Assembly (NCBI GenBank): GCA_964457755.1
Contig: CAYWGC010000001.1
Location: 128,332 to 192,331, forward strand
From: an uncultured Thermodesulfobacteriota bacterium
Lineage (GTDB): Bacteria > Desulfobacterota > Anaeroferrophillalia > Anaeroferrophillales > Tharpellaceae
DNA length: 64,000 nt
Direction: 5' to 3'
Below are positions 14,178 to 29,360 of the stretch, piece after piece; the first letter of the stretch is position 1, and each line of letters begins with the position of its first letter. The translations under genes were made by a program, and so were the position numbers. The notes below the pieces were generated by a model. The model worked only from the letters and a program-made list of their open reading frames with translations. It was not told where the DNA came from and did no database searches.

Positions 14178-15478
14178 GTCCTGAAACCGTTGGCATCATT
14201 GGCATCATCTTAATGATGGCGGCCATGCTCCTGCTCCAGATTCCGGTCGGCTTTGCAATGGCCCTGACTGGCTTTGCCGGGGTTGCCTGGCTGATCTCTG
14301 TAGATGCCGCCCTGGCCCTGATCGGCAACGACCTATGGACAACTTTTTCAGGTTACGGCCTGACCATTATCCCACTTTTTATCTTCATGGGCCATATCTG
14401 TTTCCACAGCAACGTCAACAGCCGCCTCTACAAATGTGCCTACGCCTGGCTCGGAGCAACTCGTGGCGGTCTGGCGATGGCGACGGTTGCGGCTTGTGCC
14501 GGTTTTGCCGCAATCAGCGGCTCCAACACGGCCACCGCCGCGACCATGACTTCGGTAGCGTTGCCGTCAATGAAGAAATATGGCTATCACCCAACCCTGA
14601 TTACCGGTTCAATAGCGGCTGGATCAACCTTAGGAGTCGTCATCCCCCCCAGCATTGTTCTGGTGGTTTACGGCATCTACACCGGGCAGTCGATCGCCAA
14701 ACTTTTTTTCGGCAGTATTATCCCCGGCCTGATCCTCGCGGCCTTACTGATTATAACAATTATTGTCATCTGTCGCCGTCACCCAGACTGGGGACCCCCA
14801 GGCGAAAAAACCACCTTCAAAGAAAAAATATTATCGCTCAAGGGCTCTTTCGAGATGCTGTTGCTTTTCGGTCTGGTTATGGGCGGCCTTTTTGTCGGCT
14901 TTTTCACGCCCAGTGAGGCTGGCGCCGTGGGCTCATTCTGCGCCGTAGTTTTAAGTTTTTTCCGCCGTTCACTCTCATATAAAAAATTTATTGCGGCCAT
15001 CAACGACACCTTAAAAATTTCAAGTTTCATCATTATAATTATTGCTGGAGCTGTCATCTTCGGCCGGTTTCTGGCCTTAACCAGGCTCCCCTACGCGATT
15101 GCCGAATGGGCCGCGGCTCTGCCCGTCGCACCAGCCATTATCCTCTGGATCATCATCCTGGTCTTTCTCGTCGGCGGCGCCATCATGGATGCCCTGGGCC
15201 TGCTCCTGATCACCATCCCGATCTTCTACCCCCTGGCCGTAAAGCTCAACTTCGACCCGATCTGGTTCGGGGTTTTGATTACTATTGTCACCACTATGGG
15301 CGCCATCACCCCTCCAGTTGGGGTCAACGCCTATGTTGTTGCCGGCATTGCCGAAGATATCCCATTAACAACTATCTTTAAAGGCATTGCCTATTTTCTA
15401 CCGACCTACATCATCACCATTATCCTGATCGAAATCTTCCCGCAGCTTATCCTCTGGCCAGCCGCTTCGGTTTATTGA
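14174..15478 (+). CDS. dctM: TRAP transporter large permease (DctM family)
   Basis: 434 aa polytopic membrane protein. Overlapping ATGA start/stop with dctQ. DctM-type motifs. Confidence 0.85.
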   Translation: MSPETVGIIGIILMMAAMLLLQIPVGFAMALTGFAGVAWLISVDAALALIGNDLWTTFSGYGLTIIPLFIFMGHICFHSNVNSRLYKCAYAWLGATRGGLAMATVAACAGFAAISGSNTATAATMTSVALPSMKKYGYHPTLITGSIAAGSTLGVVIPPSIVLVVYGIYTGQSIAKLFFGSIIPGLILAALLIITIIVICRRHPDWGPPGEKTTFKEKILSLKGSFEMLLLFGLVMGGLFVGFFTPSEAGAVGSFCAVVLSFFRRSLSYKKFIAAINDTLKISSFIIIIIAGAVIFGRFLALTRLPYAIAEWAAALPVAPAIILWIIILVFLVGGAIMDALGLLLITIPIFYPLAVKLNFDPIWFGVLITIVTTMGAITPPVGVNAYVVAGIAEDIPLTTIFKGIAYFLPTYIITIILIEIFPQLILWPAASVY

Positions 15479-15828
15479 CTTTGTAAAAACTCCTTCGACG
15501 GCGATCAAAAAATAAACCTAAAAAGACAGCAGTGAAATTTACAGTTGTTCACAACCACATCTTCGTGTAAAATTACGGAGATAATGAACAGATGTTATAG
15601 CCCCCTGAAACAGAATTTAAAACAAAAAAGTTTGCTGACTACCATAGACCTTCACCAGATGCTTTGATTATAGCTAAAACAGATCAATGAGAGCCGAAAC
15701 AGTTTGACGGAAAAACCCATTAACCTTGACAATCTCAAATAAATCCTGCAACTATACAGTTAAATCAATCGCCAGCAACCTCTCCTGATTGCCGGCTAAT
15801 ACGTATTCCGTGTGATCATCTGTAATCT

Positions 15829-17865
15829 ATGCGACAACTGATTCCCTCATCTAATATTATTAACGATCTCCTGGCCGAAAACTGGGAGCTGCGCTGGCGG
15901 GTTCTGGAAAACTTTTACCAGACCCAGCTTTTGCTACGCGATTTTGCCCATTCCTCAGAAGAACATAAACAGGCCCGCACCTTGTGCAAAGAGATGGCCG
16001 GCAGACTCAACGGTGCCAGTGATGTAAACCTGCATCTGGTTCTGACTGCAGCCTGGTTTTTAGGGGGCAACCACTTTCTCCTGCTGGCTTTAGAGGAGAT
16101 CGGAGTTGATGACCCGGAGACTGGTGATTCGGAAACCAAGCGTCTGAAAAAACCACTTATAAATAATCACCCAGAAGCCTCTTTCTTTGACTATTTCCAC
16201 TCCCTGTTGAGCCGTAACAAAGCCGTAGACGCTGCGACAGCCACCGCCATCAAATTTTTTCCCGCTGATCTCAGTCTTAAACTGCTCTGCGCCATCCCTG
16301 AACGTGAAGCAAGAGTTGCCGGTCTTAGTTTACTAAAAAACAATCAACCTGGACTTTTATTTAATGATTTTCTTCTCGCAAATAATCTCTTACTCCTGAA
16401 AGAGACGCCGGAACTTTTAGATTTTATCGGCCCCAATTTAACTCCTGAAACAGAGGCTGAAGTCACCAAGCTGGTATCAAAATTACTGGCCAGCAACAAC
16501 CTTATAGAATACGCAATCCGCGCGGCCGGGCGCCTGCAACTTGAAAGCTGCCGCCCCCAACTTAGAAAACTGATTGACGATGAACCCCTGGCAGCCGGAG
16601 CCCTGGCCCGGTTCGGTGATGAGATTGGGTGCAACAAACTGCTCAAATCCGGTAAATCATGGCGCCGCAAAAAACGCACCGCGGCCCTTTCCGAGCTGGC
16701 ATGGTGTAAGAGTCCCGAAGCCCTGGAACTTCTGCAAAGCCGGGCCCAGCAGAGTAATCTTGAAGAGCGCCATGAAGCTTTGCAGGCTCTTGGCCAAATG
16801 CGCAGCCCCGAAGCTCTGCAAATAATCCGCGATCTTCTTAACAAATCCCATAAAAAAGAGAACCTCAAGCTACTCTTACAAAGTATCACCGGCCCCAAGT
16901 GGCCGGCAGAGTGCCAACCTGAATGCCAAGATACAGCCAACCAACTCGCTCAATGGGCGGACAATGTTGAGTTTTACCCAACCCTGCTCCAGGCGCTGGC
17001 AGCCCTCGCCTACGATGATGCCTGGAACGACATTTTAAGCCGCATTAAAAGCCCCGTTCTCAAACCTCACTACCGAGAGATCGCCCTCTTCATGAGTCGT
17101 TTTGCGGATCAAGCCAAAATTCGGCAGAGCCTGCTGACTTTAACAAATGATATTGACTGGTCTTTTTCCTATCGCCTGATTAATCTATTATCCCCAAAAC
17201 TCAAAGGTTTAGACATCCCGCACTTGCTAAATCTACTGACCGATCGGGAAGAGGGACGGGCTTTGACTATCAAAGAACGTCTGACCAAAGGCCAGGATCT
17301 TGAGCGCATAACCGATGCCATGGCCGAATTCTTTGAACATCACCCAGAAATCGCCAACCTGACCATCGAAAAGTTGCTGACCGCCATCTCTATCGGCAGC
17401 CAACCCCCAAGTGAACTACTTTTTGCTGAAATAAGACAACAACCAAATGAATTAATCGATCTAATTCTTGGCAGTGGCCCGGGTAACGATCATGCTGATA
17501 TTACCGACCGTGACTTCCCCCTGCTGATGGCCATGCATTTACTCTCTGAAATCGAGGTTGAAGGCAGCGATTGTTTTGCGATAATAGTACACCGAACCCG
17601 GCGCTACAGCGGTTTCTTCCGAGAGTCTATAACTGCCGCCCTAAACCTTCTGCTTGACCAGGAAAATGAACTCAGCCATGTGCAAAATCTACCTATCTTA
17701 AATCAGATTATTGACTTTATTCGAGGGCGAATTCACTATGAAGATTTGCGCCAGAAAATCCTTCTAAGAATCAACCAGATAGTCCGCAAAAGCAAAGAAC
17801 TTAAGGTCTACAACGAAGCCTCTCAAACCAGAGAGCTCAAGATTTTCAAAGTGAAGAAACTCTGA
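15829..17865 (+). CDS. HEAT/PBS-lyase-type repeat protein (678 aa), function unknown
   Basis: Leu-rich helical repeats, e.g. SPEALELLQSRAQQSNLEERHEALQALGQMRSPEALQIIRDLL. No signal peptide. Stop overlaps the start of the next gene (TGATGG). Confidence 0.6.
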   Translation: MRQLIPSSNIINDLLAENWELRWRVLENFYQTQLLLRDFAHSSEEHKQARTLCKEMAGRLNGASDVNLHLVLTAAWFLGGNHFLLLALEEIGVDDPETGDSETKRLKKPLINNHPEASFFDYFHSLLSRNKAVDAATATAIKFFPADLSLKLLCAIPEREARVAGLSLLKNNQPGLLFNDFLLANNLLLLKETPELLDFIGPNLTPETEAEVTKLVSKLLASNNLIEYAIRAAGRLQLESCRPQLRKLIDDEPLAAGALARFGDEIGCNKLLKSGKSWRRKKRTAALSELAWCKSPEALELLQSRAQQSNLEERHEALQALGQMRSPEALQIIRDLLNKSHKKENLKLLLQSITGPKWPAECQPECQDTANQLAQWADNVEFYPTLLQALAALAYDDAWNDILSRIKSPVLKPHYREIALFMSRFADQAKIRQSLLTLTNDIDWSFSYRLINLLSPKLKGLDIPHLLNLLTDREEGRALTIKERLTKGQDLERITDAMAEFFEHHPEIANLTIEKLLTAISIGSQPPSELLFAEIRQQPNELIDLILGSGPGNDHADITDRDFPLLMAMHLLSEIEVEGSDCFAIIVHRTRRYSGFFRESITAALNLLLDQENELSHVQNLPILNQIIDFIRGRIHYEDLRQKILLRINQIVRKSKELKVYNEASQTRELKIFKVKKL

Positions 17866-19382
17866 TGGCTAAATCAATCTCAATCTTCTTTAACAATGTC
17901 AATCTGCAGGTCTACAGCCAGGATGAAGATAGCGGTCATATTGAGTCAGTCCACCTTGGCGACATTTCAACCACAGTCGAAATTAACACCCCTAAAGGTT
18001 CCGAAAAAATCCACCTGATCCCGGCCATGATCTGCTATGGCGATCGCATCTATTGCGGCCAGGAGGTTTTCAGCCATAAAAAATTCAACTCTACTGCGAC
18101 CTTCAAGTACATGAAGCAGTATATGGGCAAAAAACAGTACCTGCCCAGGATTATCAACGACCAGGAGATCAGTACCTTCCAGGCCGCTACTGATCTCCTG
18201 GTCAACATCATCGACCGCATCCATGCGCTCTACGGCAAAGATCAGATAGCAATGATCGTTTTCATTGTCCAGCCCCTTAACTTTTCCGTCTTCGCGGCAA
18301 CCATCGAAGAGTTCTGTCTGCGCATTGGCCTGATTAACTATAAGATTGTTGATGAAACCGTGTGCGCCCTTTTAGCTTACGATCTTGCTACCCAGATAAA
18401 CCAACACCTGGTCTATCTCCATTTCGGCTACACAACCATCGACCTCTATCTGGTCAAGATTGTCGAGAGCACTCGTGAACCCCGGCTCCAGAGCGTAATC
18501 ATCTGCAGTATGCATAAAAACTATGGTGGAGCCGACATCGACCGAGTGATCCAGGTCCATTTCGCCGAAAAAGTCAAATTCAATATGAAAAAGGCCCGTG
18601 AAATCAGAGGTAAACTTAACCTGAACCCCCAGTTTCATGAGACCATTGACGGAGTTGATCTCCATCTTTCACGCGAAGATCTCCATAAAATGCTTGACCA
18701 GAAAGGTTATGGCGATGAGCTGAAAGTTCTTTTACGCGATCTCTTTGACCTGGCGTCCGGTTTTGGGGTCACAAATGACAATGTAGGTTATGTTTTAGGC
18801 AGTGGTTTAAGCTTGCCGACCCACTACTACCATGACATATTGAAAAAATTTTTCGGCCCCAAGCTTCTGAGCAACCACGCCCATGAAGCGATCCCGATAG
18901 GGGCCTTGCGCTACCTTAAAAAAGGCGGAATTCAGGCTACTGTTAAAGCGAACTATGCGCTTCGCAGCCGCACCGCCAAAGGCGATGGCTACCGCTACGA
19001 CATCATCGTTCCCAAAGGCACCACCTTCCCAACCCAGAACGGTATCACCAGTATCGTTGCTAACGGTTTTTTTGCCGGCCAGCTTGAGGTGGAACTCGAT
19101 ATTTTCCGGATGGATCGCCCCGAATCGAGCAATGACCGGGAAATTGTCATTGATGCTGCGGGACACATGCAACTCGAAGAGAACTTAGGCGATACACAAC
19201 AATCTTTTATTAATGAGGCACGCCCGGAGATCATCCCGCTCGACCCCCCGGCCTTGGACAATGAACAACGCTTAGAAATTACGTTTGACATCAGCTTGAA
19301 CTGTGACTTACTGATTACGGTCAAAGACCTGCGCCGCAATCAGACTATCTGGAAAAGAAAAAAATCGGTGCGCCTGCAGTGA
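17865..19382 (+). CDS. Divergent Hsp70/actin-fold (ASKHA) ATPase, Hsp70-like protein (505 aa)
   Basis: Phosphate-2-like LVYLHFGYTTIDLYLV and adenosine-like VLGSGLSLP motifs; Hsp70 nucleotide-binding-domain length (about 380 aa) plus a short C-terminal domain. ATGA overlap with the upstream gene. Confidence 0.55.
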   Translation: MAKSISIFFNNVNLQVYSQDEDSGHIESVHLGDISTTVEINTPKGSEKIHLIPAMICYGDRIYCGQEVFSHKKFNSTATFKYMKQYMGKKQYLPRIINDQEISTFQAATDLLVNIIDRIHALYGKDQIAMIVFIVQPLNFSVFAATIEEFCLRIGLINYKIVDETVCALLAYDLATQINQHLVYLHFGYTTIDLYLVKIVESTREPRLQSVIICSMHKNYGGADIDRVIQVHFAEKVKFNMKKAREIRGKLNLNPQFHETIDGVDLHLSREDLHKMLDQKGYGDELKVLLRDLFDLASGFGVTNDNVGYVLGSGLSLPTHYYHDILKKFFGPKLLSNHAHEAIPIGALRYLKKGGIQATVKANYALRSRTAKGDGYRYDIIVPKGTTFPTQNGITSIVANGFFAGQLEVELDIFRMDRPESSNDREIVIDAAGHMQLEENLGDTQQSFINEARPEIIPLDPPALDNEQRLEITFDISLNCDLLITVKDLRRNQTIWKRKKSVRLQ

Positions 19383-19582
19383 CTGAAAAGCCCAATAAAA
19401 CTACCCCTCCCTCTGCAGCGCCCCTAAAAGAGGAGCTGCAGGTTCATATCCGCATTACAGAAAACGGTGAAATATGTGCCTGGGGCCTGGACCAAAAAGG
19501 CGAAGAGAAAATTTACGGATTGACCGGCAACCTCGATTTAATTAATAGATATAAGGCTATGTCATTTAACTTGTGCGGTTAA
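19379..19582 (+). CDS. Small hypothetical protein (67 aa), GTG start overlapping the stop of the Hsp70-like gene
   Basis: GTGA overlap implies translational coupling; no recognisable domain. Confidence 0.35.
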   Translation: MTEKPNKTTPPSAAPLKEELQVHIRITENGEICAWGLDQKGEEKIYGLTGNLDLINRYKAMSFNLCG

Positions 19583-19773
19583 ATTTGAAGTTTTATTAGA
19601 CTCTTGCCTGTGAAGTTTCACTCAAAACGATCAAAACCTTACTTTCAACTACAGATAGCAGTAGAGTACACAGAGGCTCCAGCAAGAAAGCTTTCGCTGT
19701 AAACCCTGTGGTAATTTTCTAACTTAAAACTTTAGCCTTTTTGGTTCCGGATACACCGGATTAGGAGTCGATA

Positions 19774-21264
19774 ATGACCTTTCTTGATCGCTTCAACACC
19801 ACCATTCGCAGCAACCACTCCCTGATCAACGTGGTAACTTACGAAGAGGACCGCTTTCTGACGATGATGGCTGAATCCCCGCTTTTCAAAGACAAAAACA
19901 TTATTATCTGGGATCTCGGGGATGGCTTTAAATCGATCAAGGGAGAGATGAGCGGCATCAAAAACAAGGATCGTCCCGACCCCATCAACTGCCTGCAGGA
20001 GATTAGTAAATTCAGCGGCAACACCATCTTTATTTTGCGTGATTTCCATCTCCATTTTCGTGAAAGTATTATTCTACGCTCCTTAAGAAACCTTAACCAT
20101 GACTTGCAGTTTACCAAAAAAACCATCATCTTGACCACGCCCAGCGCGACCTTGCCGATAGAGTTACGGGAAGATGTCTGCCAGATCGAGTTGGAACTCC
20201 CTGGCTACTATGAAATTGAAAAAAAGCTCGACAGTGTCGTTGCCAGCGCCGCCCAAGGTAAACCCCCAACCCCCCAACTCAAAGAGAAGATTGTTGAATC
20301 AACCCTCGGGCTCTCAATGGTCAACATTAAGAACCTTTTTTCCAAAATAATCATCACTAACGGAGCCGTTGACGAACGCGCCATAGAAATCATCCTGCAG
20401 GAAAAACGCGGCATTATTAAAAAAGGAGAAATTTTAGAATTTTTCCCGGTTCAAGAGAGCCTTAACGATATCGGCGGCCTCGATAATCTCAAAGGCTGGC
20501 TCCGCAAGCGCAGTCAGGTTTTCACCCACAAAGCCAAAGACTACGGCCTGCCATCACCTAAAGGTATTCTTATTATCGGAATCCAGGGAACCGGCAAGAG
20601 CCTCACCGCTAAAGCGACCGCCGGACTCTGGAAATTACCGTTATTACGGATGGATCTGGGCAAGGTTTTTGGAAGTTTACTGGGTGAATCTGAACAGAAC
20701 CTGCGGCAGGCAATTCACTTGGCCGAAACTATCTCACCCTGCATCTTGTGGATCGATGAACTCGAAAAAGCTTTCGCCGGAAGCTCCGGTTCGGCCGGCG
20801 ACGGCGGCACTTCGGCTCGGATCTTAGGAACCTTTCTCACCTGGATGCAGGAAAAGACTAAACCGGTTTTCATCATAGCTACCGGCAATGATGTCGCCCA
20901 GCTTCCCCCTGAACTGATGCGCAAGGGCCGTTTTGATGAGATTTTTTTTGTTGACCTGCCTTCAACCTCTGAACGACAAGCAATCTTTAAGGTTTTGCTG
21001 GAAAAGGTACGCCCCGTCATCCGGCAGTTCAATCTTGAGAAACTGGCAGATGCCACAACAGACTACAGTGGGGCTGAGATCGAACAGATTATTTACGATG
21101 CTATGTTTAACGCTTTTGACGATAACCAACGCGAATTCACGGAAGCTGACATTCTCTTAAGCGTTAACGAAATTATCCCGATATCACGCTTGATGAGCGA
21201 AAAAATCGATGGACTTAAGGCCTGGGCAGCCCAACGCACCCGTAAAGCTAACAGTGAATCATAA
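19774..21264 (+). CDS. AAA+ ATPase of the Ycf46-like class (N-terminal domain of unknown function plus a classic C-terminal AAA module)
   Basis: Walker A GIQGTGKS; Walker B ILWIDELEKAF; sensor-1 IATGN; arginine finger GRFDEIFFVDLP. 496 aa. GGAG RBS. Confidence 0.8.
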   Translation: MTFLDRFNTTIRSNHSLINVVTYEEDRFLTMMAESPLFKDKNIIIWDLGDGFKSIKGEMSGIKNKDRPDPINCLQEISKFSGNTIFILRDFHLHFRESIILRSLRNLNHDLQFTKKTIILTTPSATLPIELREDVCQIELELPGYYEIEKKLDSVVASAAQGKPPTPQLKEKIVESTLGLSMVNIKNLFSKIIITNGAVDERAIEIILQEKRGIIKKGEILEFFPVQESLNDIGGLDNLKGWLRKRSQVFTHKAKDYGLPSPKGILIIGIQGTGKSLTAKATAGLWKLPLLRMDLGKVFGSLLGESEQNLRQAIHLAETISPCILWIDELEKAFAGSSGSAGDGGTSARILGTFLTWMQEKTKPVFIIATGNDVAQLPPELMRKGRFDEIFFVDLPSTSERQAIFKVLLEKVRPVIRQFNLEKLADATTDYSGAEIEQIIYDAMFNAFDDNQREFTEADILLSVNEIIPISRLMSEKIDGLKAWAAQRTRKANSES

Positions 21265-21297
21265 TTACTTATTAAAACTGCTCAAGGGAGAACAACC

Positions 21298-21675
21298 ATG
21301 TCCCACTTCACCAAGATAAAAAGTAAAATCGCTGATAAGGTTTTTTTAAAAAAAGCGATCAGCGACATGGAGCTAGAGTACCAGGAAGGTAAATTGAAAG
21401 CCAAGGGTTGGCTCTGGAAAAAAGAGAAAGCCGATATTGTCATCCCGACTAAAAGCGGTTTCGATATCGGTTTTCGTTTCAATGGTGAAACCTTTGATGT
21501 AGTCGCCGACTGGGACTCAATCAAGGACGTCGACCAGACAACCTTCATGGATACCCTGAACCAACGCTATGCTTATAATGTTGTCAAAAACACTTTGGCA
21601 CAACAGGGCTTTCTCCTCACCAACGAGGAAGCCGAAGCGGGAAATATAAATATGACATTAAGCCGGAATATTTAA
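21298..21675 (+). CDS. DUF1257 / Ycf35-like protein (125 aa)
   Basis: The N-terminus MSHFTKIKSKI... and the central DIGFRFNGE...FDVVADWD motif resemble Ycf35-family proteins; this is recollection of the family, not a database search. Confidence 0.55.
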   Translation: MSHFTKIKSKIADKVFLKKAISDMELEYQEGKLKAKGWLWKKEKADIVIPTKSGFDIGFRFNGETFDVVADWDSIKDVDQTTFMDTLNQRYAYNVVKNTLAQQGFLLTNEEAEAGNINMTLSRNI

Positions 21676-21692
21676 CAGGAGATCACCAAATC

Positions 21693-21890
21693 ATGGAAAA
21701 AATAGATATTACGATCGGCAAAGATGGCGCCGTAGATCTGCAACTAGCTGGTTTTGAGGGTGGAAAGTGCCTTGAGGTTACCAAAATCCTGGAAACCCTG
21801 CTCGGCAATGAGATCGTTGAACGAAAGATGACCAGCGAATACTACACAACCAAGAATGTTCAGTTGGAAGAAAAACTACCCGGCTCCTGA
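21693..21890 (+). CDS. DUF2997-like small protein (65 aa)
   Basis: MEKIDITIGKDGAVDLQLAGFEGGKCLEVTKILETLLG...TSEYY matches the pattern of DUF2997 proteins, which usually sit next to DUF1257 genes. Confidence 0.5.
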   Translation: MEKIDITIGKDGAVDLQLAGFEGGKCLEVTKILETLLGNEIVERKMTSEYYTTKNVQLEEKLPGS

Positions 21891-21988
21891 AAAAAAGAGT
21901 TGTTTTGAGTAACCCCTAAAAAAGAACATTACTCTTTTTTGAATACACATCTTTTAGCGCTCATAAAAAACAAAAAATCAAAAAAAAC

Positions 21989-22016
21989 TTGACAACCTAA
22001 AATGTTTAGCTATAAT
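21989..22016 (+). promoter_or_regulatory. Near-consensus sigma-70 promoter (TTGACA-16 nt-TATAAT) with an A-rich UP-like tract
   Basis: TTGACA at 21989-21994 and TATAAT at 22011-22016, about 75 nt upstream of the 22094 ORF. Confidence 0.6.
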
Positions 22017-22093
22017 ATATAATGTAATATTTTCCAGCTGATACACTATTTGCCAGCCTAAAAGAGACAGGATCACCCAAGCACTAAATTCAC

Positions 22094-22528
22094 ATGCCTC
22101 CGGAGTGGACAATGACCCCCAGCCAAGCCCGAATTAACAGTTGCAACTACGGCTATCAAGACGACAAATCAACCGACATTTTTGAAATGATCCAGAGTAT
22201 TCCGACCTTGACCAAGATTGGGGCAATCTGCTTAGTTCTAGGCAAATGCTTCGGCATCATGGCAATCCCAGCGGCCTTCATCCCCGCTCTTAATATTTTA
22301 GTCGTACCTTTAATCTTAGTTTGGGGATCTTTTGTTTTCATCGCTATTGCCCTCTGCTCAGTGGATCACTTCAAAAAGAAAAAACTTGAAACTCAAAATG
22401 AGAAAAAAGATATTATAGCATCAATGATTGAAGAGACTCCTGAATTACGAGATCAGATTGTCGATGAATTTGAGCAAGTTGGTATGGGGTCTGCTGTCAT
22501 CGTACCTTTGGCTGTCGGTCAACGTTAA
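22094..22528 (+). CDS. Small membrane protein (two TM helices), hypothetical
   Basis: Hydrophobic segments LTKIGAICLVLGKCFGIMAIPAAF and ILVVPLILVWGSFVFIAIALC; followed by a terminator. Confidence 0.4.
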   Translation: MPPEWTMTPSQARINSCNYGYQDDKSTDIFEMIQSIPTLTKIGAICLVLGKCFGIMAIPAAFIPALNILVVPLILVWGSFVFIAIALCSVDHFKKKKLETQNEKKDIIASMIEETPELRDQIVDEFEQVGMGSAVIVPLAVGQR

Positions 22529-22551
22529 GCCTAAAATTTCAAGACCAGCCG

Positions 22552-22596
22552 ACTTCAAAAAGCACCCCAAATTTATCTGGGGTGCTTTTTTTTTTG
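22552..22596 (+). terminator. Rho-independent terminator
   Basis: AAGCACCCCA / TGGGGTGCTT stem followed by T10. Confidence 0.75.
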
Positions 22597-22903
22597 AAAA
22601 TAACCTACTTATATAAAAAACATACTATAACCTCAGGAGGCAAACATAACAAAAATCCGCTTACCCTGCTTAATCAAAAGACCCACATAAAGGGTGAAAA
22701 CAACCATCAAAGACCAACTCCACACAAAGAAAACCAATTTTTTTTATGGGTTTCCTCTTGTTTTTGGTTGACCAAACAAGTCAATTAATGTAGCTTAATG
22801 AGGCATTTGACACCAAACGCGATCTCATATCAAAAAACCGCACAACTTACGACCAGTATCGCAGGAAAGATCACTGGCAAACTATTAAACAGAGGATTTT
22901 TAG

Positions 22904-24301
22904 ATGGCTGGATTACAATGGCAAAAACTGAAGCTTATGGCCGGGCTGCTATTGGGGTGTTGCTTGCTGACAACATCCGGATTTGCCCTGGAGTTGGGTG
23001 GCGCCGATATCTCAATCAGGAGTACCACCGAATATCGACTGCAATGGTCTGACAGTCCGGCGAATTACATGATTGTCGACGAGGATCAGGACCAGGATAT
23101 TTTTGAAACCCTGGCGATTGATGTTAACTGGCAAGACTTAGGCCTGATCTTCTCTTCGATGGCCACCTACGTTAAAGATCTGGACGGCACCCGCCAAGGC
23201 TCAATCTTCCAGGACTACACTGATAGCCGTGGTAGCCATCGGCAGGATTTTCAATGCTATTACGCTTATCTGGAAAAAACCGGCCTCTTTAGCAACGATC
23301 TCACGGTCAGAGCTGGCCGCCAATATGCCTACGGCGCCGAGACCGTACAGTTTGACGGGGTCTGGGCCCATTACGACCGCCCCCAATGGCTGGGACTGGA
23401 AGTTGAAGCTTTTGGCGGCCTCGCGGTTCAGCACTACAGTGACCTTGGACCGGATGGCATTGGCGGAGCAAATGTTAGGATTCGCCCGCTGCCGGGCCTC
23501 TCTCTTGATTTAAATACTGTGATTTTTGAAGAGACCTCATGGGAGTCCTCAATCTACTGGCAGCCTTCTGAACTCTGGAAATTTCGCAGCCGCATCGCCT
23601 TCATTAATGATCATACTCGTTTTTTCGACAGCGGCCTTGAAACCACTATCGCGGCAACCGGCACTGTCCTCGATTTCTCCTTCTATCGGCGTTTCGCCAT
23701 CTCTTCAGAGGCCGACTTCCTTTTCGACTTCAGTTATACCCTCGATGAAGCTTTAAACTCGGAGATGAATCGCCTCTATCTGATGCAAGAACAGGGTTAT
23801 CTCGAATTTGATGTCCGCATCAGCCAACCGATCTCTATTGTCAAAGGACTTACCCTCTTCGGTCGCTACACCAATCGCAGTCTCGCTCATGGCGAGGATG
23901 AAAACCTCTACAACACCGATTTTGAAAGGGTAACCACCGGTTTTGACCTTGATCAGTGCTTTGGTTGGCAGGGTTTTCGCTGTAGTGCCGGATTCAGCCA
24001 ATGGTGGGAGGATCGAGATCAGTTTTACGAAGGGGAGTCAACCTCCTGGTTTGTCGATCTCGAACAGGAGTTATTCCACAGGCTTGAACTTGAAGCTGGC
24101 TACTACCATAAAACCGAGAATGTCAACAGCCTCCTCGAAGATGAGGCCTCAACCAGCTACCGGGCGGCGATCGCCTATCGACTTTGCGACCACTCGCGCG
24201 TCGAGATCTCTTATGAATACGCGCAAGATGATTTCTACGAAGATGAGCTGGGAGTTGACTACATTAACTCTCTAACTATCTCACTTGATCTTAATTTCTA
24301 A
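22904..24301 (+). CDS. Outer-membrane beta-barrel protein (465 aa), putative porin of a porin-cytochrome complex
   Basis: Signal peptide; beta-strand periodicity; C-terminal ...ISLDLNF; directly upstream of two multiheme cytochrome genes. Confidence 0.6.
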   Translation: MAGLQWQKLKLMAGLLLGCCLLTTSGFALELGGADISIRSTTEYRLQWSDSPANYMIVDEDQDQDIFETLAIDVNWQDLGLIFSSMATYVKDLDGTRQGSIFQDYTDSRGSHRQDFQCYYAYLEKTGLFSNDLTVRAGRQYAYGAETVQFDGVWAHYDRPQWLGLEVEAFGGLAVQHYSDLGPDGIGGANVRIRPLPGLSLDLNTVIFEETSWESSIYWQPSELWKFRSRIAFINDHTRFFDSGLETTIAATGTVLDFSFYRRFAISSEADFLFDFSYTLDEALNSEMNRLYLMQEQGYLEFDVRISQPISIVKGLTLFGRYTNRSLAHGEDENLYNTDFERVTTGFDLDQCFGWQGFRCSAGFSQWWEDRDQFYEGESTSWFVDLEQELFHRLELEAGYYHKTENVNSLLEDEASTSYRAAIAYRLCDHSRVEISYEYAQDDFYEDELGVDYINSLTISLDLNF

Positions 24302-24353
24302 AGTAACAAGGTCTCTCAAAATCATTAACAATTATATTATACAGGCAATTTCT

Positions 24354-25253
24354 ATGAGTATGCATAAGAGAAAATTATTCTGGGTTGGGCTTATGGCAAT
24401 CGCCCTTGGTGCCCTGGTTCTGGGAGCCTGCAAATCTTCGGTAGGCCTCAAATTCAGCCACCGCTCCCACATTGTCGAACAGGAAGCCACCTGTGACCAA
24501 TGCCACAAAAAAGATGCCAACGGCAATCTGGCTGCCGCCACTATGGCTGACTGCCAGGAGTGCCACGAGATCAATGTCAACGAGCCCTCTAAGGAGTGTC
24601 TTCTCTGCCATACACCGGAAAGTGCGGCCAAGGATTACGAGATCGAGAGAGCTGGAAAACCGGCAAATTACACTGACCTGATTTTCAGTCATAAGACTCA
24701 TACAGACCTTGCCTGCGACTCCTGCCACACCTCCATGGGCCAGAATTACAACCTTAAAAACGGTCCCTTTATGGTCGTTTGCCTCAACTGCCATAAGAAT
24801 CAGGGCGCTCCCATGGAGTGCGAAGCCTGCCACACTGTCTTAAGAGCTGATCAAGCTCCGGCAAGCCATCATCAAGACTGGGAAGCCAAACATGGCTTTG
24901 CCAGCCGTTTATCGGACTCCTGCTCCTACTGCCACCCGAACCGTCAGGCTTTTTGCGAAAAGTGCCACCAGACCGAAAAACCAAAAGATCACAAGTTTGG
25001 CTGGAAAACCACCGGCCACGGGGTTGAAGCGACCCATGATCGCCGCACCTGCGCCACCTGTCACTCGGCCGGCTACTGTGTCGATTGCCACAAACACCAG
25101 AAACCGGTCTCCCACTTTCGCGGCGACTGGATGGCCTATCAACGTGACAACGGTCACGGCGAGGCGGCCCGACGTAATTTCCGCAGCTGCAACGTCTGTC
25201 ATGAGACGGGTGAGTGTATGCAGTGTCATAAAGGTATAATTTTAAGGAAATAA
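24354..25253 (+). CDS. Dodecaheme c-type cytochrome, lipoprotein (12 CxxCH in about 300 aa)
   Basis: Lipobox LVLGAC after MSMHKRKLFWVGLMAIALGA. Twelve CxxCH motifs: CDQCH, CQECH, CLLCH, CDSCH, CLNCH, CEACH, CSYCH, CEKCH, CATCH, CVDCH, CNVCH, CMQCH. Confidence 0.85.
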   Translation: MSMHKRKLFWVGLMAIALGALVLGACKSSVGLKFSHRSHIVEQEATCDQCHKKDANGNLAAATMADCQECHEINVNEPSKECLLCHTPESAAKDYEIERAGKPANYTDLIFSHKTHTDLACDSCHTSMGQNYNLKNGPFMVVCLNCHKNQGAPMECEACHTVLRADQAPASHHQDWEAKHGFASRLSDSCSYCHPNRQAFCEKCHQTEKPKDHKFGWKTTGHGVEATHDRRTCATCHSAGYCVDCHKHQKPVSHFRGDWMAYQRDNGHGEAARRNFRSCNVCHETGECMQCHKGIILRK

Positions 25254-25340
25254 TATTTTCGCTGCAATGAGTTTTGTTTTTTATAAATTAAAATATTCTT
25301 TTTACCCTCACAATATTTTTCAACCCTTGGAGGTAGCTCG

Positions 25341-28300
25341 ATGAAAAAAATTTACCCCATTATCCTGGGAGCCTTCTTACTGGTCCTCACCCCTCTGCTG
25401 GTCGGTGCAACGCACCCCCCGGTAACCCTTTACGACGGTCACGGTAATCGCATCATTGATCAACTTGATGACAGCGAAATCGTTACTGCGGCCGGCGGCT
25501 CAACTTACAAAGCCGGGCCGCCCTACAGCCCCAAACAGACCTGCGGCAAATGTCATGACTACCACGAAGTCACCAAAGCCTACCATTTTCGTGAAGGCGC
25601 CGGTGAAGACGGCCAAGGTATCAGTGATACCTGGAGCAGTGAGAATCAGGACAACCCGCTCTACAAATACCTGGCCAATGCTTATGGACATCTTTTGAGC
25701 CCGGGTCAATTTGGAGCGTGGTGACCGCCGTCTTACCGCCAGGTGGCGGTAAAAAAAGAGCGCGGCCACTTCCTTGATCCTTTTACCTCTGAAGATAAAC
25801 CTTACTTTTTTGACATGGGAACCGCAGATCACATTGCCACTTGTGAATCTTGCCATCCCGGTGGTGGTCCGGTTGAAGGTATCGTCAATATGGATGGGAC
25901 GATGACCCAGTTTGACGACCCCAGTCTGGCACCCGAACACTCTTACGATCGTGACTTTTACGGTTACAGTTCCAACGATCTCACCATGGCTATTTATGGT
26001 TCTGATTCGATTTCGGAAACCATGGCCAATATCGGCGACCCCAAACCCCACGACTGGTCCAAATCCGGCGTCGTTGAAGCCGACTGCCTGCTCTGCCACA
26101 TCGATCCAGAAAGTGCTTACAGCTACCGAGCTGCTGATGGTCTTAAAGTGCAGTCCTTCCGCCCCCGGATGATGATTTTCGCGGAACGCGACGAAAATTT
26201 CAAGGCCCAGAAAATTTCTTTTGGGATGCCAACCAAAGTTGGCCTCGAAAACAGTTCGGCCCTCTACTACAGTGACAGCCTGCAACGCATGGGTCGACCG
26301 ACACCAATGATGGCTTTAGGTCAACTACCAAAAGAGATTGTCGGCGAGATGATGCAGATGTGGGTTGACGGTCTTGCCGGAATTGAAGCCCAGGGCATCA
26401 ACCTGCCTTTCGCCCTTTACGGCCAGAATATCAGTAAAATCTGGGAAACCAACGGCATGCTCAAGGCAGCCTACTGCGCCAACCCCAACGGCGTCATGGA
26501 TGAAATGGGCCGCCTCCAGGGAGCTCAAGCTGCAATTGGCTCACTCTTTCAGGGATTTCTCCAATTCATGATTGGCAAAGGTTTATTACCGCCGGATGCC
26601 GACATGAATATACTAATGGGCCTTTTCTTTAATGATTTCATCTACGCCTATCAGCTGCAATTTCCCAACGATATGCTTTTGCCGATTCCTTACGCTCTTA
26701 GAGCTTACGAACCCGGCAAATTCTACACTAACTGGGACAGTTTTCACGCCTCAACCCGTGACTATATCCGCTCCGGCCTGATCGAAGGCGAGGGCATTCC
26801 CTATGTCGGCAAAAACGGTACGGAATTGAGTGCCACCATGTACGGCATGGGCAAGATTATGCAGGGCGACTATACTTATGTCAACCAGGCAACCGGTCAA
26901 CTTGATCTCTCTCTGGTCATTCAGGACCTCCAGGAAGGTAAAATTCCGGAAGGTGAGATCAATCCGGTACTCCATGATTATCTGCCGAGTTTCTTCAACT
27001 ATATGCCCTCCGGCGAACTCATGGGCCTCGACTTTAACCAGGACGGGGCTCCAGTTACCTATCTGCGGATAGATCGCGATGGTGATGACTGGACACCAAA
27101 AGTCTTTTACAATCTCGCTGATATCGGGGCTGACGGGGTTCTCCCCATGGCCGAGATGTTTGGTGGCAGCAAAGACCGAGAAAGTTATAAATGGGTAAAA
27201 GTTTGTGGTCAGTGTCATGTCATGACCAAGGATCACGGCAACAGCGAATGGACCAAAGCCCGTCTCTACAATATGGGTTTCCCGGCCGATTATGTCAAAA
27301 ACGGTCACTACGTCAATTTTACCGATGATCAGGAAGATCGCGGCTACGATGTTCATATGTCGGGTAAATGGATGGGTTGCGGCAGCTGTCATCTGCGCGA
27401 TAACGGATCTTTGAACGACAAGCATAATTTTCTAAAAGGGGTCGATACGGCCCACATGGTGCGTAACGATCTTGATGCCAACCCCAGGGTCAAAAGCTGT
27501 GAAGGTTGTCACCTTGCAGGCGAAGGGCACGGCAGCAACCCAGCCCTCAAACATGAAGAAGTTTTCGGCGAAAGCACCGGTCGCCATCTCTCTGAAGTCT
27601 CCTGCCAGGCCTGTCATGTACCCTTCAGGAAAACCTGGCGCTTTAGAGCTTTTGATGACACTTTAGGCTACTACGCCAACTTTGATAACCTCATGGGTTA
27701 CAACATTCTGCCCGGCGGCGATGGCGCAATCATGGCCTTTCCCTCACCAGCTTATGCAATCTCACCGGTCTACTCCTGTTCCCCGGGCTATGGCATTCCT
27801 CACTTCAATATGCTTGCCAACCACATTGAAGCCGATGGCCAGGGCATTGAATCTATGGATGTCCAGTCGCAGATGGTTGACTACTTCTTTATGGACGGTG
27901 AGTCCGATCCCGGCCAGATGGTCAACGGCATGCCGACCAACTTTAAATTTGACTTCTGGAAATATTTTCTTCAGGCCGGTTACGAAGGCATGAAGGCGAT
28001 GGGTGTCCCCCTCGAGTATACCGATCTCACCGATAACGAAGTTTTTCCGCCGCTCTACTATGCAAACGGCATCAACGGTTATCCGCAGGTGGTTACTGGC
28101 AATCCGATCACGGTTATGACCTGGGTCGACACCAACCCCCAACCGGATGCTGACATGAGTGAGATGGCTTATAGCGGTGCCCGTATTCTCTATCTCAAAG
28201 AGATGAATGCGATCATTAGAGATTACAAACGCCCAACTAAACTGGGCATGGTTAACCCTATGGATCTGGCGATGATTCCGGCTAATGACCCGACCTGGGC

Positions 28301-29360
28301 TGAAAATCCCTATGTCGGACGCGTAATCCTTAAAGAGAGTGGTTACGTTATCTTTGACCATACCGGCGACATGTTCCCCGATATCTGGTGGGACGAAGAT
28401 GTCAGAGCGGTCCAGGAGTCCCTCAAAAAAGTCCTTATCGCTGAAGGCGGCACCGACCCCAACCCGGTAATGTTTCTTGCAGCTCACTACTTCTCCGACA
28501 GCCATGGGGTGCAACCTAAAGAGTACTCTTTAGGGGCCAAGTCCTGTAATGACTGTCATGGTGACGTAACCAAGGATGCCGGGGCCCTGCGGGTTACCGA
28601 CCGCATCATCTCTTATCTGCCTTGGGCTCCACCCTGGTTTAGAGATGAAAACCGGGCTATGCGTTACGACCCTGAACAGGGTATGATCCCAGCCAACCCC
28701 GACGGTCTCTTCATTGTTGATGGCGAAATCGACTACGTCCAAGCAATCGAAGCCAACGGCATGCGTTTTCTTGGCGCCAGAGAGAAAGATATTCTCAAAC
28801 TCAGTCACCATCATGCAGAAGCCCTCTTCACTTTAGCTTCCGAAGGAACGGTTACCGGTGACTCAATCTTCGGCGTTGACCCGACCCTGCTGTCTCCTGA
28901 AGAAAGAGCCACGGAATATGCTAAACAGGTCGTCAACGGCCCCTGGATGGATAAAACCCATTTCTACATCCCGCAAGAGCTTAAACCACAACTTGCCGGT
29001 TTAGGTTTTGTTGTCGGCGGTAAAGAGGATGTCTACTTAAGTGGCCGCGGCTTTGCTCAAGCCTACACGCTGCGCTATGAACTTATGGCTCCGCATGAAG
29101 TAGATAACGCAGCCGTCAGGACACATGCTTTACCGGCTGCCATTATCCGCCTGCCCTTTACCGGTAGCACGCCAGAAATCTGGACTATGGGTGAACACGA
29201 CACCTTCTTTAAACTTGACACCAACGCCGTTATTGTCGGCCACCAGAGCGCCTACGTTCTCGTCAAGGTCAATAACCCTGGCGAGTATGTCGCGGTCGAA
29301 CAGGGAGCCGGCGGTGGCAACGCTCTGCTTTATGACCTCTGGGGGGCTTTCTTCAAGTAG
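25341..29360 (+). CDS. Very large octaheme c-type cytochrome (about 1340 aa if read through). The N-terminal signal-peptide/monoheme segment (25341-25721) and the 1205-aa heptaheme body (25743-29360) are in the same frame, separated only by TGA at 25722-25724. Either a selenocysteine or read-through gene, or a recent pseudogene.
   Basis: Frame arithmetic: (25743-25341) is divisible by 3. The first segment has the signal peptide MKKIYPIILGAFLLVLTPLLVGA and CGKCH. The second has CESCH, CLLCH, CGQCH, CGSCH, CEGCH, CQACH and CNDCH but no export signal of its own. Haem density is low, implying large non-haem domains. Confidence 0.6.

Follow-up and report, generated by a model that had tools for sequence, protein, structure and literature searches.

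This report concerns a cassette of six genes in the genome of an uncultured Thermodesulfobacteriota bacterium. The window, by which we mean the whole stretch of DNA that was analysed (64,000 nucleotides (nt); contig CAYWGC010000001.1, positions 128,332 to 192,331), contains six co-directional genes on the + strand at 15829-21890. They encode a HEAT-repeat protein, an Hsp70-like protein, a protein of only 67 amino acids (aa), an AAA+ protein, and two further small proteins of the DUF1257 (Ycf35) and DUF2997 families. The listing of open reading frames (ORFs) places all six where the initial annotation had put them, and the layout is as follows.

15829..17865, + strand: HEAT protein, 678 aa; stop overlaps the next start by 1 nt
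17865..19382, + strand: Hsp70-like protein, 505 aa; lid-less, degenerate catalytic motifs
19379..19582, + strand: small ORF, 67 aa, GTG start; lineage-specific
19583..19773, no strand: spacer, 191 nt; this genome only
19774..21264, + strand: Ycf46-type AAA+ protein, 496 aa
21298..21675, + strand: DUF1257 protein (Ycf35 family), 125 aa
21693..21890, + strand: DUF2997 protein, 65 aa; usual DUF1257 partner

The HEAT and Hsp70-like genes overlap by 1 nt (TGATG) and the Hsp70-like and 67-aa genes by 4 nt (GTGA), while the DUF1257 and DUF2997 genes are separated by 17 nt. Non-coding stretches of 350 nt (15479-15828) and 203 nt (21891-22093) border the genes upstream and downstream. The initial annotation had described the six co-directional ORFs with both start/stop overlaps, a gap of about 190 nt, and flanks of about 350 and 200 nt, all of which agree with the ORF coordinates, and its domain calls (HEAT, Hsp70-like, AAA+, DUF1257, and DUF2997) are supported by Pfam.

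A scan of one genome per species yielded 17 loci, including that of Candidatus Tharpella aukensis. The 22 related loci come from Thermodesulfobacteriota or Candidatus Tharpella-like metagenome-assembled genomes (MAGs) and were searched by tblastn with the six window proteins. The six genes are found together and in identical order in 22 of the 22 loci, as far as each contig extends. Ahead of the AAA+ gene, the divergent clade has a gap of 13 nt, and the other loci show anything from an overlap to a spacing of ~70 nt; gaps of ≤20 nt are frequent. The flanks vary by sub-lineage, with a TRAP transporter and cytochromes in the window, histidine kinases and flavodoxin in L001, and a tautomerase and asd in L003. 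The more distant loci (L001/L002 and L003-L005) thus have other flanking genes, and three flank contexts or more are represented. In the closer subclade, synteny of the downstream genes is shared by 9 genomes; therefore, the cassette appears to be inherited stably and vertically and not to be a mobile island.

The genes of the cassette co-evolve. Identity to the window protein correlates across loci with that of the Hsp70-like protein for four of the five other genes (Spearman rho of 0.99 for HEAT, 0.94 for AAA+, 0.86 for DUF2997, and 0.82 for DUF1257), and rho is 0.44 for the 67-aa protein. Conservation across loci decreases in the order AAA+ (77-94% identity), DUF1257, Hsp70-like, DUF2997, 67-aa protein, and HEAT (29-73%). 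The anticipated co-occurrence of the HEAT/Hsp70-like pair with the AAA+/DUF1257/DUF2997 trio is therefore confirmed in every one of the 22 loci. The locus had been described as two tightly packed units. The 191-nt gap exists in this genome; however, gene order and spacing indicate one operon or cassette rather than two units, since all the loci keep all six genes and the spacer elsewhere runs from an overlap to ~70 nt.

The Hsp70-like protein gave a weak and partial match to Pfam HSP70 (1.8e-5, residues 155-242, 23.6 bits against a cut-off of 20.6). Its scores against the NCBIfam DnaK and HscA models are 11.8-21.8 bits, whereas the cut-offs are 620-1019. Because these scores are so far below the cut-offs, the protein is not an ordinary chaperone paralogue, and the view that it is no conventional DnaK, HscA, or HscC stands. 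An AlphaFold2 model of moderate quality (predicted local distance difference test score, pLDDT, 65) was compared with known structures by Foldseek. The best matches are DnaK constructs that lack the α-helical part of the substrate-binding domain (SBD-α; 5obu and 2v7y), with E ~1e-19 over the nucleotide-binding domain (NBD) and SBD-β. The top matches also include Ssz1, a subunit of the ribosome-associated complex (RAC; 7x3k_B and 6sr6_C). Pfam, Foldseek, and the conserved C-terminal LEITFDISLN..LLITVKD agree on an actin-fold NBD followed by an SBD-β sandwich. The alignment shows the conserved C-terminal LEITFDISLNCDLLITVKDLRRN, within a block LEITFDISLN.DLLITVKDLRRN, which we take to resemble the SBD-β signature. 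In canonical Hsp70s, SBD-β is the peptide clamp. The protein ends at residue 505, right after SBD-β, and has no helical lid (SBD-α).

The nucleotide-binding motifs of the protein are degenerate in the clade of the window. Phosphate-1 reads ISIFFNNVNL, whereas outgroup family members have IAIDFGTSNT, and phosphate-2 reads LHFGYTTIDL in place of FDFGGGTLDV (DFGGGTLD). Further motifs are DETVCAL (DGGVCAL in the sister subclade) against DEPxAAA in the outgroup, and LGSGLSLP against VGGSSxIP. Both catalytic aspartates and the phosphate-binding Gly/Thr residues (GTT/GGGT loops) are lost, and this has happened in this clade only; the relatives keep them. The absence of a canonical phosphate-1 motif had been pointed out in the initial annotation, and the comparison with the relatives bears it out. 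The same annotation had envisaged a two-ATPase system. Because both catalytic aspartates are lost, together with the loops that the relatives retain, the Hsp70-like protein is probably no ATPase, and this part of the proposal is doubtful. Despite the loss of the motifs, the protein is strongly constrained (53-96% identity, with long invariant C-terminal stretches). Judged from these motifs, it is probably a non-hydrolysing subunit, a pseudo-ATPase that would keep the client clamp of SBD-β.

Close homologues of the Hsp70-like protein are few: 39 were found in 5.8 billion clusters, and those with a named source are assigned to Deltaproteobacteria, Pseudomonadota, or MAGs of a similar kind. When 1.84 billion representatives were searched with a profile, 375 family clusters were retrieved (E ≤1e-3), mostly of 500-545 aa and matching positions ~1-503, and canonical DnaKs were not among them. 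The 505-aa protein is accordingly placed, at the level of sequence, in a small and distinct family of lid-less Hsp70-like proteins. One metagenome protein, P0039 (432 aa), carries Pkinase and PK_Tyr_Ser-Thr domains joined to the C-terminal SBD-β half of an Hsp70-like protein of the window type (68% identity); either the fusion is genuine or it arose during assembly. The closest outgroup protein, P0041 (L024), has active motifs. Its neighbours are HsdR, GmrSD_N, AAA_15/AAA_21, a SpoIIE phosphatase, and a Ser/Thr kinase with HEAT and TPR repeats, a context that looks like a defence island, unlike the window locus.

The AAA+ protein matches Pfam AAA (4.5e-29) and AAA_lid_3. It is 43% identical over residues 2-487 (E 1e-143) to a Pseudanabaena AAA+ protein encoded beside ycf35 (L030:4369-5985), and it matches PHROG 8638 at 1e-141 over residues 7-493. 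Typed through this cyanobacterial ycf35-adjacent homologue, it is assigned to the Ycf46-type classic clade with a family-specific N-terminal domain; a homologue search with the N-terminal domain alone retrieved 4 fragments. By eye, the Walker A (GIQGTGKS) and Walker B (ILWIDELE) motifs and the arginine fingers (RKGRFDE) are present, and they are conserved in the alignment to the cyanobacterial homologue. The DUF1257 protein (9.2e-23, 80.9 bits against a cut-off of 22.2) and the DUF2997 protein (6.5e-14, 52.0 bits against 24.1) are recognised by Pfam. The kinship of the trio with ycf46/ycf35, claimed in the initial annotation, is thus supported by the Pfam thresholds and by the full-length cyanobacterial AAA+ match, and all three proteins can be assigned by these matches to known but uncharacterised families.

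Conserved polar residues were found in both small proteins: S2, H3, D56, Q89, and Y91 in DUF1257, and D11, C26, T30, and E34 in DUF2997. In DUF2997, D11, G12, G20, C26, T30, and E34 are near-invariant. These residues hint at a shared metal or active site. The conservation of MSHFT in DUF1257 is partly circular because the pattern scan described below required it, and the protein of L221 begins with MSQIV. A glycyl-radical motif, RVxG[FY], was also sought by eye in DUF1257 and DUF2997; the YDIGF and V-x-G(20) stretches do not fit it, and the glycyl-radical idea remains speculation.

The surroundings of DUF1257 outside the clade were surveyed with a degenerate DUF1257 DNA pattern, chosen to be free of ATPase bias, in viral (65 loci) and metagenome (120 loci) collections. 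The pattern requires MSHFT...DIGF, so the sample is biased. The loci were annotated with custom hidden Markov models, and neighbours were counted over 118 metagenome and 65 viral loci, as follows.

DUF2997 beside DUF1257: 70/118 metagenome (many loci cut short), 65/65 viral; 135/183 in all
Ycf46-type AAA+ (full-length matches) beside DUF1257: 23/118 metagenome, 0/65 viral
Hsp70-like family beside DUF1257: 15/118 metagenome, 0/65 viral
Both ATPase families beside DUF1257: 5/118 metagenome, 0/65 viral
GrpE beside DUF1257: 4/118 metagenome, 0/65 viral

The link between the Hsp70-like family and DUF1257/DUF2997 thus recurs in unrelated lineages, at 23-42% identity, which supports the linkage proposed in the initial annotation. 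The fullest form is L221, in which seven co-directional genes encode an AAA+ protein, a HEAT_2+WD40 protein, GrpE, an Hsp70-like protein, DUF1257, DUF2997, and a radical S-adenosylmethionine (radical-SAM) protein. Its AAA+ protein is 42% identical to that of the window, and its Hsp70-like protein has active motifs. Shorter forms are L031 (GrpE / Hsp70-like / DUF1257 / DUF2997) and the locus of P0045 (L028), where Hsp70-like, AAA+, and DUF1257 genes are followed by a RelB-YafQ insertion and then DUF2997. An upstream GrpE gene overlaps the gene of the Hsp70-like protein P0044. The radical-SAM partner is ~190-240 aa long and contains Fer4_12 and Radical_SAM domains. In NCBIfam, it matches NrdG best (1.3e-34, slightly short of the cut-off) and, after that, glycyl-radical activases of the PflA type. 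In L221 and in 14 of the 118 metagenome loci, such a gene comes directly behind DUF2997. Examples are given in the next line.

Radical-SAM genes: L098:9495-10130, L100:473-1063, L128:3561-4136, L202:4350-5066, L221:10492-11163, and 10 further loci

The NrdG/PflA-like gene behind DUF2997 suggests that radical chemistry may act on the DUF1257/DUF2997 pair. The window cassette shares with these loci (L221, L128, L145, L155, and L031) the same families and the local order of Hsp70-like, DUF1257, and DUF2997. A repeat protein upstream of the Hsp70-like gene and a full-length Ycf46-type AAA+ protein (42% identity in L221) are also in common. However, the relatives keep canonical Hsp70 catalytic motifs, GrpE, and often the radical-SAM gene, and all three are missing from the window and its clade. 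The window in turn adds the 67-aa protein, and its AAA+ gene lies between this small protein and DUF1257. Lacking GrpE and the radical-SAM gene but having a lineage-specific protein, the window cassette may be regarded as a reduced variant.

Several variants were observed besides. The RelB/YafQ toxin-antitoxin pair of L028 (7734-8263) lies between DUF1257 and DUF2997 of an otherwise intact module. At L167:7639-13043, DUF1257 and DUF2997 are flanked by two matches to the AAA+ profile, one of 1013 aa, a further architectural variant. An IS200-type (Y1_Tnp) transposase gene (L128:17-1006) stands directly upstream of a module of Hsp70-like, DUF1257, DUF2997, radical-SAM, and AAA+ genes.

The pair also occurs without detectable AAA+ or Hsp70-like genes nearby, in 111 of 185 loci, including all 65 viral ones. 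In the viral contigs (L032-L096), DUF2997 precedes DUF1257 in 65 of 65 cases, usually with an overlap and with no ATPase gene nearby, whereas bacterial loci with ATPases have the reverse order, DUF1257 then DUF2997. Prochlorococcus phage P-SSM2 carries the DUF2997-DUF1257 pair (L220:2802-3381) between purM/Nol and a DNA polymerase gene, among genes of auxiliary metabolic type. Rhizobium phage RHph_I4 encodes AAA+, a hypothetical protein, DUF1257, and DUF2997 in this order. In all, 136 phage records contain full or partial AAA+ homologues, and all three families of the trio have PHROGs. The literature that could be searched, in which five papers in all refer to these two DUFs, contains no description of the Hsp70-like family, GrpE, or an NrdG-like activase linked to DUF1257/DUF2997.

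The HEAT protein is the fastest-evolving member of the cassette. Pfam HEAT_2 (8.4e-11) matches residues 277-343 only, and the repeat signal extends over ~120 of the 678 residues; PADLOC added one weak match to a HEAT model. The HEAT signal of the proposed 678-aa HEAT/ARM scaffold is therefore present, but a repeat architecture along the whole length is not demonstrated. In hhalign, the protein gave 90% probability against the HEAT domains fused to the family members P0122 and P0171, a similarity of the generic HEAT kind. A comparison with the HEAT/WD40 protein of L221 gave no significance, and homology to it was not accepted. Members of the Hsp70-like family are fused to HEAT (P0122 and P0171) or WD40 (P0093 and P0134) domains, and a WD40 gene lies directly upstream in L100; repeat proteins are thus likely partners of this family. 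The window HEAT protein is predicted to be a scaffold or partner of the Hsp70-like protein. An exchange factor of the HspBP1/Fes1 type, as suggested in the initial annotation, is not supported. Relatives with intact motifs encode a bona fide GrpE just upstream, GrpE and the HEAT/WD40 protein coexist in L221, and the window clade possesses neither GrpE nor the catalytic residues; each of the last two facts argues against such a role.

The 67-aa protein is present in all 21 distinct loci that cover its position. Its N-terminus is variable, and a C-terminal domain of ~45 aa, hIrI..GEIcAWGL...TGN...MS..LCG-stop, is conserved in 21 distinct sequences, with an invariant terminal LCG. The ratio of nonsynonymous to synonymous substitution rates (dN/dS) is 0.07-0.26 over the 46 conserved C-terminal codons. 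Because of this ratio and the presence of the ORF in every locus, it is a real gene. It was found in the window clade only, and Pfam, NCBIfam, PADLOC, and PHROG gave zero matches. As a candidate paralogue of DUF2997, it was rejected (hhalign probability 6.8%, one β-hairpin only).

The control regions and the next gene downstream were also inspected.

15698..15752, + strand: conserved upstream segment, candidate promoter region of the operon; conservation in L006, L007, and L009
22094..22528, + strand: small membrane protein (orf144), 144 aa; frequent but not obligatory downstream neighbour

Within the 350-nt upstream spacer, conservation in L006, L007, and L009 is limited to 15698-15752 (82-88% over 36-55 nt), and this segment contains a weak sigma-70-like match, TTGACG-18-GACAAT, at 15704-15733; it may act as the promoter. 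In the 191-nt spacer, nothing on the + strand resembles a promoter or a terminator; the spacer is not repeated in the window, nor is it conserved in the related loci. An Rfam scan of 15000-23000, which includes this spacer, gave zero matches. The orf144 gene has a perfect promoter match of its own, TTGACA-16-TATAAT, at 21989-22016 and a strong 13-bp terminator at 22557-22590; its Pfam matches are all below threshold. A homologue follows the cassette in 14 of the 22 loci, including both divergent-clade loci that are sufficiently long. It is missing from L003-L005 and L016, and two paralogues are found in L001 and L019. Farther downstream (22904-29360), there are genes for a 465-aa protein of outer-membrane type, a 322-aa multihaem cytochrome, and a 1205-aa protein. 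The first two are syntenic with the cassette in 9 loci and the third in 7. Because these genes are syntenic in many Tharpella-like genomes, the cassette occupies a stable position beside a cluster of the extracellular-electron-transfer type.

In cyanobacteria, a duf2997-ycf35-fed7 cluster has been described (PMC4284462), and the ycf46 operon is known as a general stress operon of unknown function (PMC7496141; bioRxiv 10.1101/2025.07.21.665879). This operon acts as a global stress/growth-arrest switch, and Ycf46 has been reported to interact with KaiC (bioRxiv 10.1101/2025.07.21.665879). Plastid genomes and the core genomes of cyanobacteria have both kept ycf35 and ycf46. The window AAA+ protein is related to these genes through its 43% identity to the protein encoded directly upstream of ycf35. 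However, the window trio is coupled to HEAT, degenerate Hsp70-like, and 67-aa proteins, a coupling that was not found in the cyanobacterial literature searched, and its host is a non-photosynthetic, Tharpella-like member of the Thermodesulfobacteriota.

Among other known systems, CnuD of the type III CoCoNuT combines Hsp70-like NBD/SBD and HEAT-like repeats with degenerate ATPase motifs and is predicted to bind rather than to hydrolyse nucleotides (PMC11090510). Compared by description only, the window shares this combination, but its HEAT part is a separate protein and the partners are AAA+, DUF1257, and DUF2997. Pfam, NCBIfam, and PADLOC matched neither a McrB-type NxD GTPase nor McrC/DUF2357 among the six proteins and orf144, nor a HEPN or coiled-coil CoCoNuT partner among the six. 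PADLOC matched IetA over the AAA core only (residues 253-467), and against NCBIfam IteA, with its cut-off of 510 bits, the AAA+ protein scored 87 bits. An IetS-like protease, as expected of an Ietos system, was not found, and four of the six proteins (Hsp70-like, 67-aa, DUF1257, and DUF2997) have no PADLOC match.

The Ssz1-Zuo1 complex (RAC) offers a lid-less Hsp70 that serves as a structural or client-holding subunit, and RAC structures are among the top fold matches. This is an analogy only: the window has no J-domain partner or sign of ribosome association, and the identity is ~13%. As in DnaK-GrpE-ClpB, an Hsp70-family protein is encoded with an AAA+ remodeller. HscA-HscB-IscU-Fdx parallels the cassette in an Hsp70 dedicated to one small client encoded beside it and in a ferredoxin linkage. 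However, both of these systems differ from the window, which has no J-protein and whose Hsp70-like protein lacks catalytic residues and scores far below the DnaK and HscA cut-offs; the window AAA+ protein is single-ring and Cdc48-D2-like, not ClpB. In kind, the cassette resembles by analogy the dedicated-client Hsp70 systems (HscA/IscU) and the bichaperones of Hsp70 and AAA+.

The reading that we prefer, with about even chances of being right, is that the six genes constitute one operon, whose products form a chaperone or remodelling machine for a dedicated client, with the DUF1257-DUF2997 pair as its core. From the gene context, we infer the physical interactions, the client, and the physiological role as follows. 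The pair would stand at the centre, as the client or as a cofactor-bearing complex. The Ycf46-type AAA+ protein, with its intact motifs, would be the sole working motor. Because the Hsp70-like protein keeps SBD-β but no longer has a lid, catalytic aspartates, or a GrpE partner, it may act as a nucleotide-independent client holder, in which SBD-β would hold an extended segment without cycling. It may be mounted on the HEAT-repeat scaffold, in a manner resembling the non-hydrolysing, lid-less Ssz1 in the RAC. The 67-aa protein, peculiar to the lineage, may be an accessory subunit or else a client. The cassette as a whole would be a reduced and rearranged descendant of the wider seven-gene system seen in L221. 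By analogy with the stress-induced cyanobacterial ycf46 operon, a role in stress or redox-linked proteostasis is likely. The initial annotation had proposed a candidate undescribed system; no description was found in the searchable literature and the genes form one linked system, but it probably has one working ATPase.

Some points weigh against this proposal. The model of the Hsp70-like protein is only moderate, and nucleotide binding is neither confirmed nor excluded. The radical-SAM and GrpE partners that inform the scheme are those absent from the window. Homology between the window HEAT protein and the repeat proteins encoded in distant loci is established for the generic HEAT motif only, and the HEAT- or WD40-fused family members do not adjoin the trio within the short contigs at hand. 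Moreover, instead of being clients, DUF1257 and DUF2997 could serve as adaptors or regulators.

The last point can be extended to an adaptor model, in which DUF1257/DUF2997 and the Hsp70-like, HEAT, and 67-aa proteins select other cellular substrates for the AAA+ unfoldase under stress. The AAA+ gene is indeed the most conserved and alone has intact catalytic motifs, and both SBD-β and HEAT repeats are generic peptide- or protein-binding modules. The stress/growth-arrest switch of the cyanobacterial operon and the Ycf46-KaiC interaction (bioRxiv 10.1101/2025.07.21.665879) would also suit such a model. However, the pair must have a function of its own because 111 of the 185 loci show it without a nearby ATPase gene. 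It is also linked to the NrdG-like activase (14/118 metagenome loci) and to the ferredoxin Fed7; therefore, a substrate or cofactor role fits better. The adaptor model fits less well, and we regard it as unlikely.

A rival reading is a conflict or anti-phage system, in which HEAT and Hsp70-like proteins sense the invader and AAA+ with DUF1257/DUF2997, perhaps with the membrane protein, execute the response; the initial annotation had named defence as plausible, beside remodelling and quality control. The rapid evolution of HEAT (29-73% identity against 77-94% for AAA+), the parallel with the CnuD architecture (PMC11090510), the HsdR, GmrSD_N, and AAA_15/21 genes beside P0041, and the RelB/YafQ pair within the L028 module could be taken in this sense, as could the similarity of the AAA+ core to IetA/IteA, the trio homologues in phages, and the small membrane protein that often follows the cassette. 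However, that AAA core match is a generic one, the Hsp70-like, 67-aa, DUF1257, and DUF2997 proteins have no PADLOC match, and the locus has neither a nuclease, protease, or toxin nor a McrBC partner. The cassette, which lies between transporter and cytochrome genes, is inherited vertically, and 9 genomes share its downstream genes. The gene of the membrane protein is equipped with a promoter and a terminator of its own and does not occur in several of the loci. P-SSM2 carries the pair among auxiliary metabolic-type genes, and ycf35/ycf46 are retained in plastid and core cyanobacterial genomes. The defence reading is thus not borne out, and we consider it improbable.

That two unrelated operons (HEAT/Hsp70-like/small protein and AAA+/DUF1257/DUF2997) are neighbours by chance is effectively excluded: although the 191-nt spacer parts them in this genome and cyanobacteria and phages have the trio but not the first unit, the units stay together in all 22 loci and at least three flank contexts, the spacer is elsewhere an overlap to ~70 nt and here has no promoter-like or terminator-like site, and the Hsp70-like family directly adjoins DUF1257 in many unrelated loci.

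The dedicated-client reading can be carried a step further, to a form that we hold to be rather doubtful. The DUF1257-DUF2997 pair might be a small radical- or redox-active complex, activated by the NrdG-like activase and, in cyanobacteria, wired to Fed7. The lid-less Hsp70 with GrpE and the Ycf46 AAA+ protein would then serve its maturation, repair, or recycling, and the window Hsp70 would be a passive clamp on the HEAT scaffold. If true, this would put ycf35 and ycf46 of plastids and cyanobacteria into a definite biochemical setting. The two genes are conserved across cyanobacteria, algal plastids, and cyanophages, their role has been unexplained for decades, and few loci of model cyanobacteria are induced by stress as strongly as the ycf46 operon. 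The Ycf35/DUF2997 pair is now placed in a recurrent neighbourhood of a lid-less Hsp70, GrpE, a Ycf46-type AAA+ protein, and a radical-SAM enzyme resembling glycyl-radical activases. This neighbourhood yields testable hypotheses on which proteins bind each other, on the pair as a client, and on radical or metal chemistry. The clade of the window adds a natural 'motor-dead' Hsp70, a bacterial example of an apparently non-catalytic, structural subunit.

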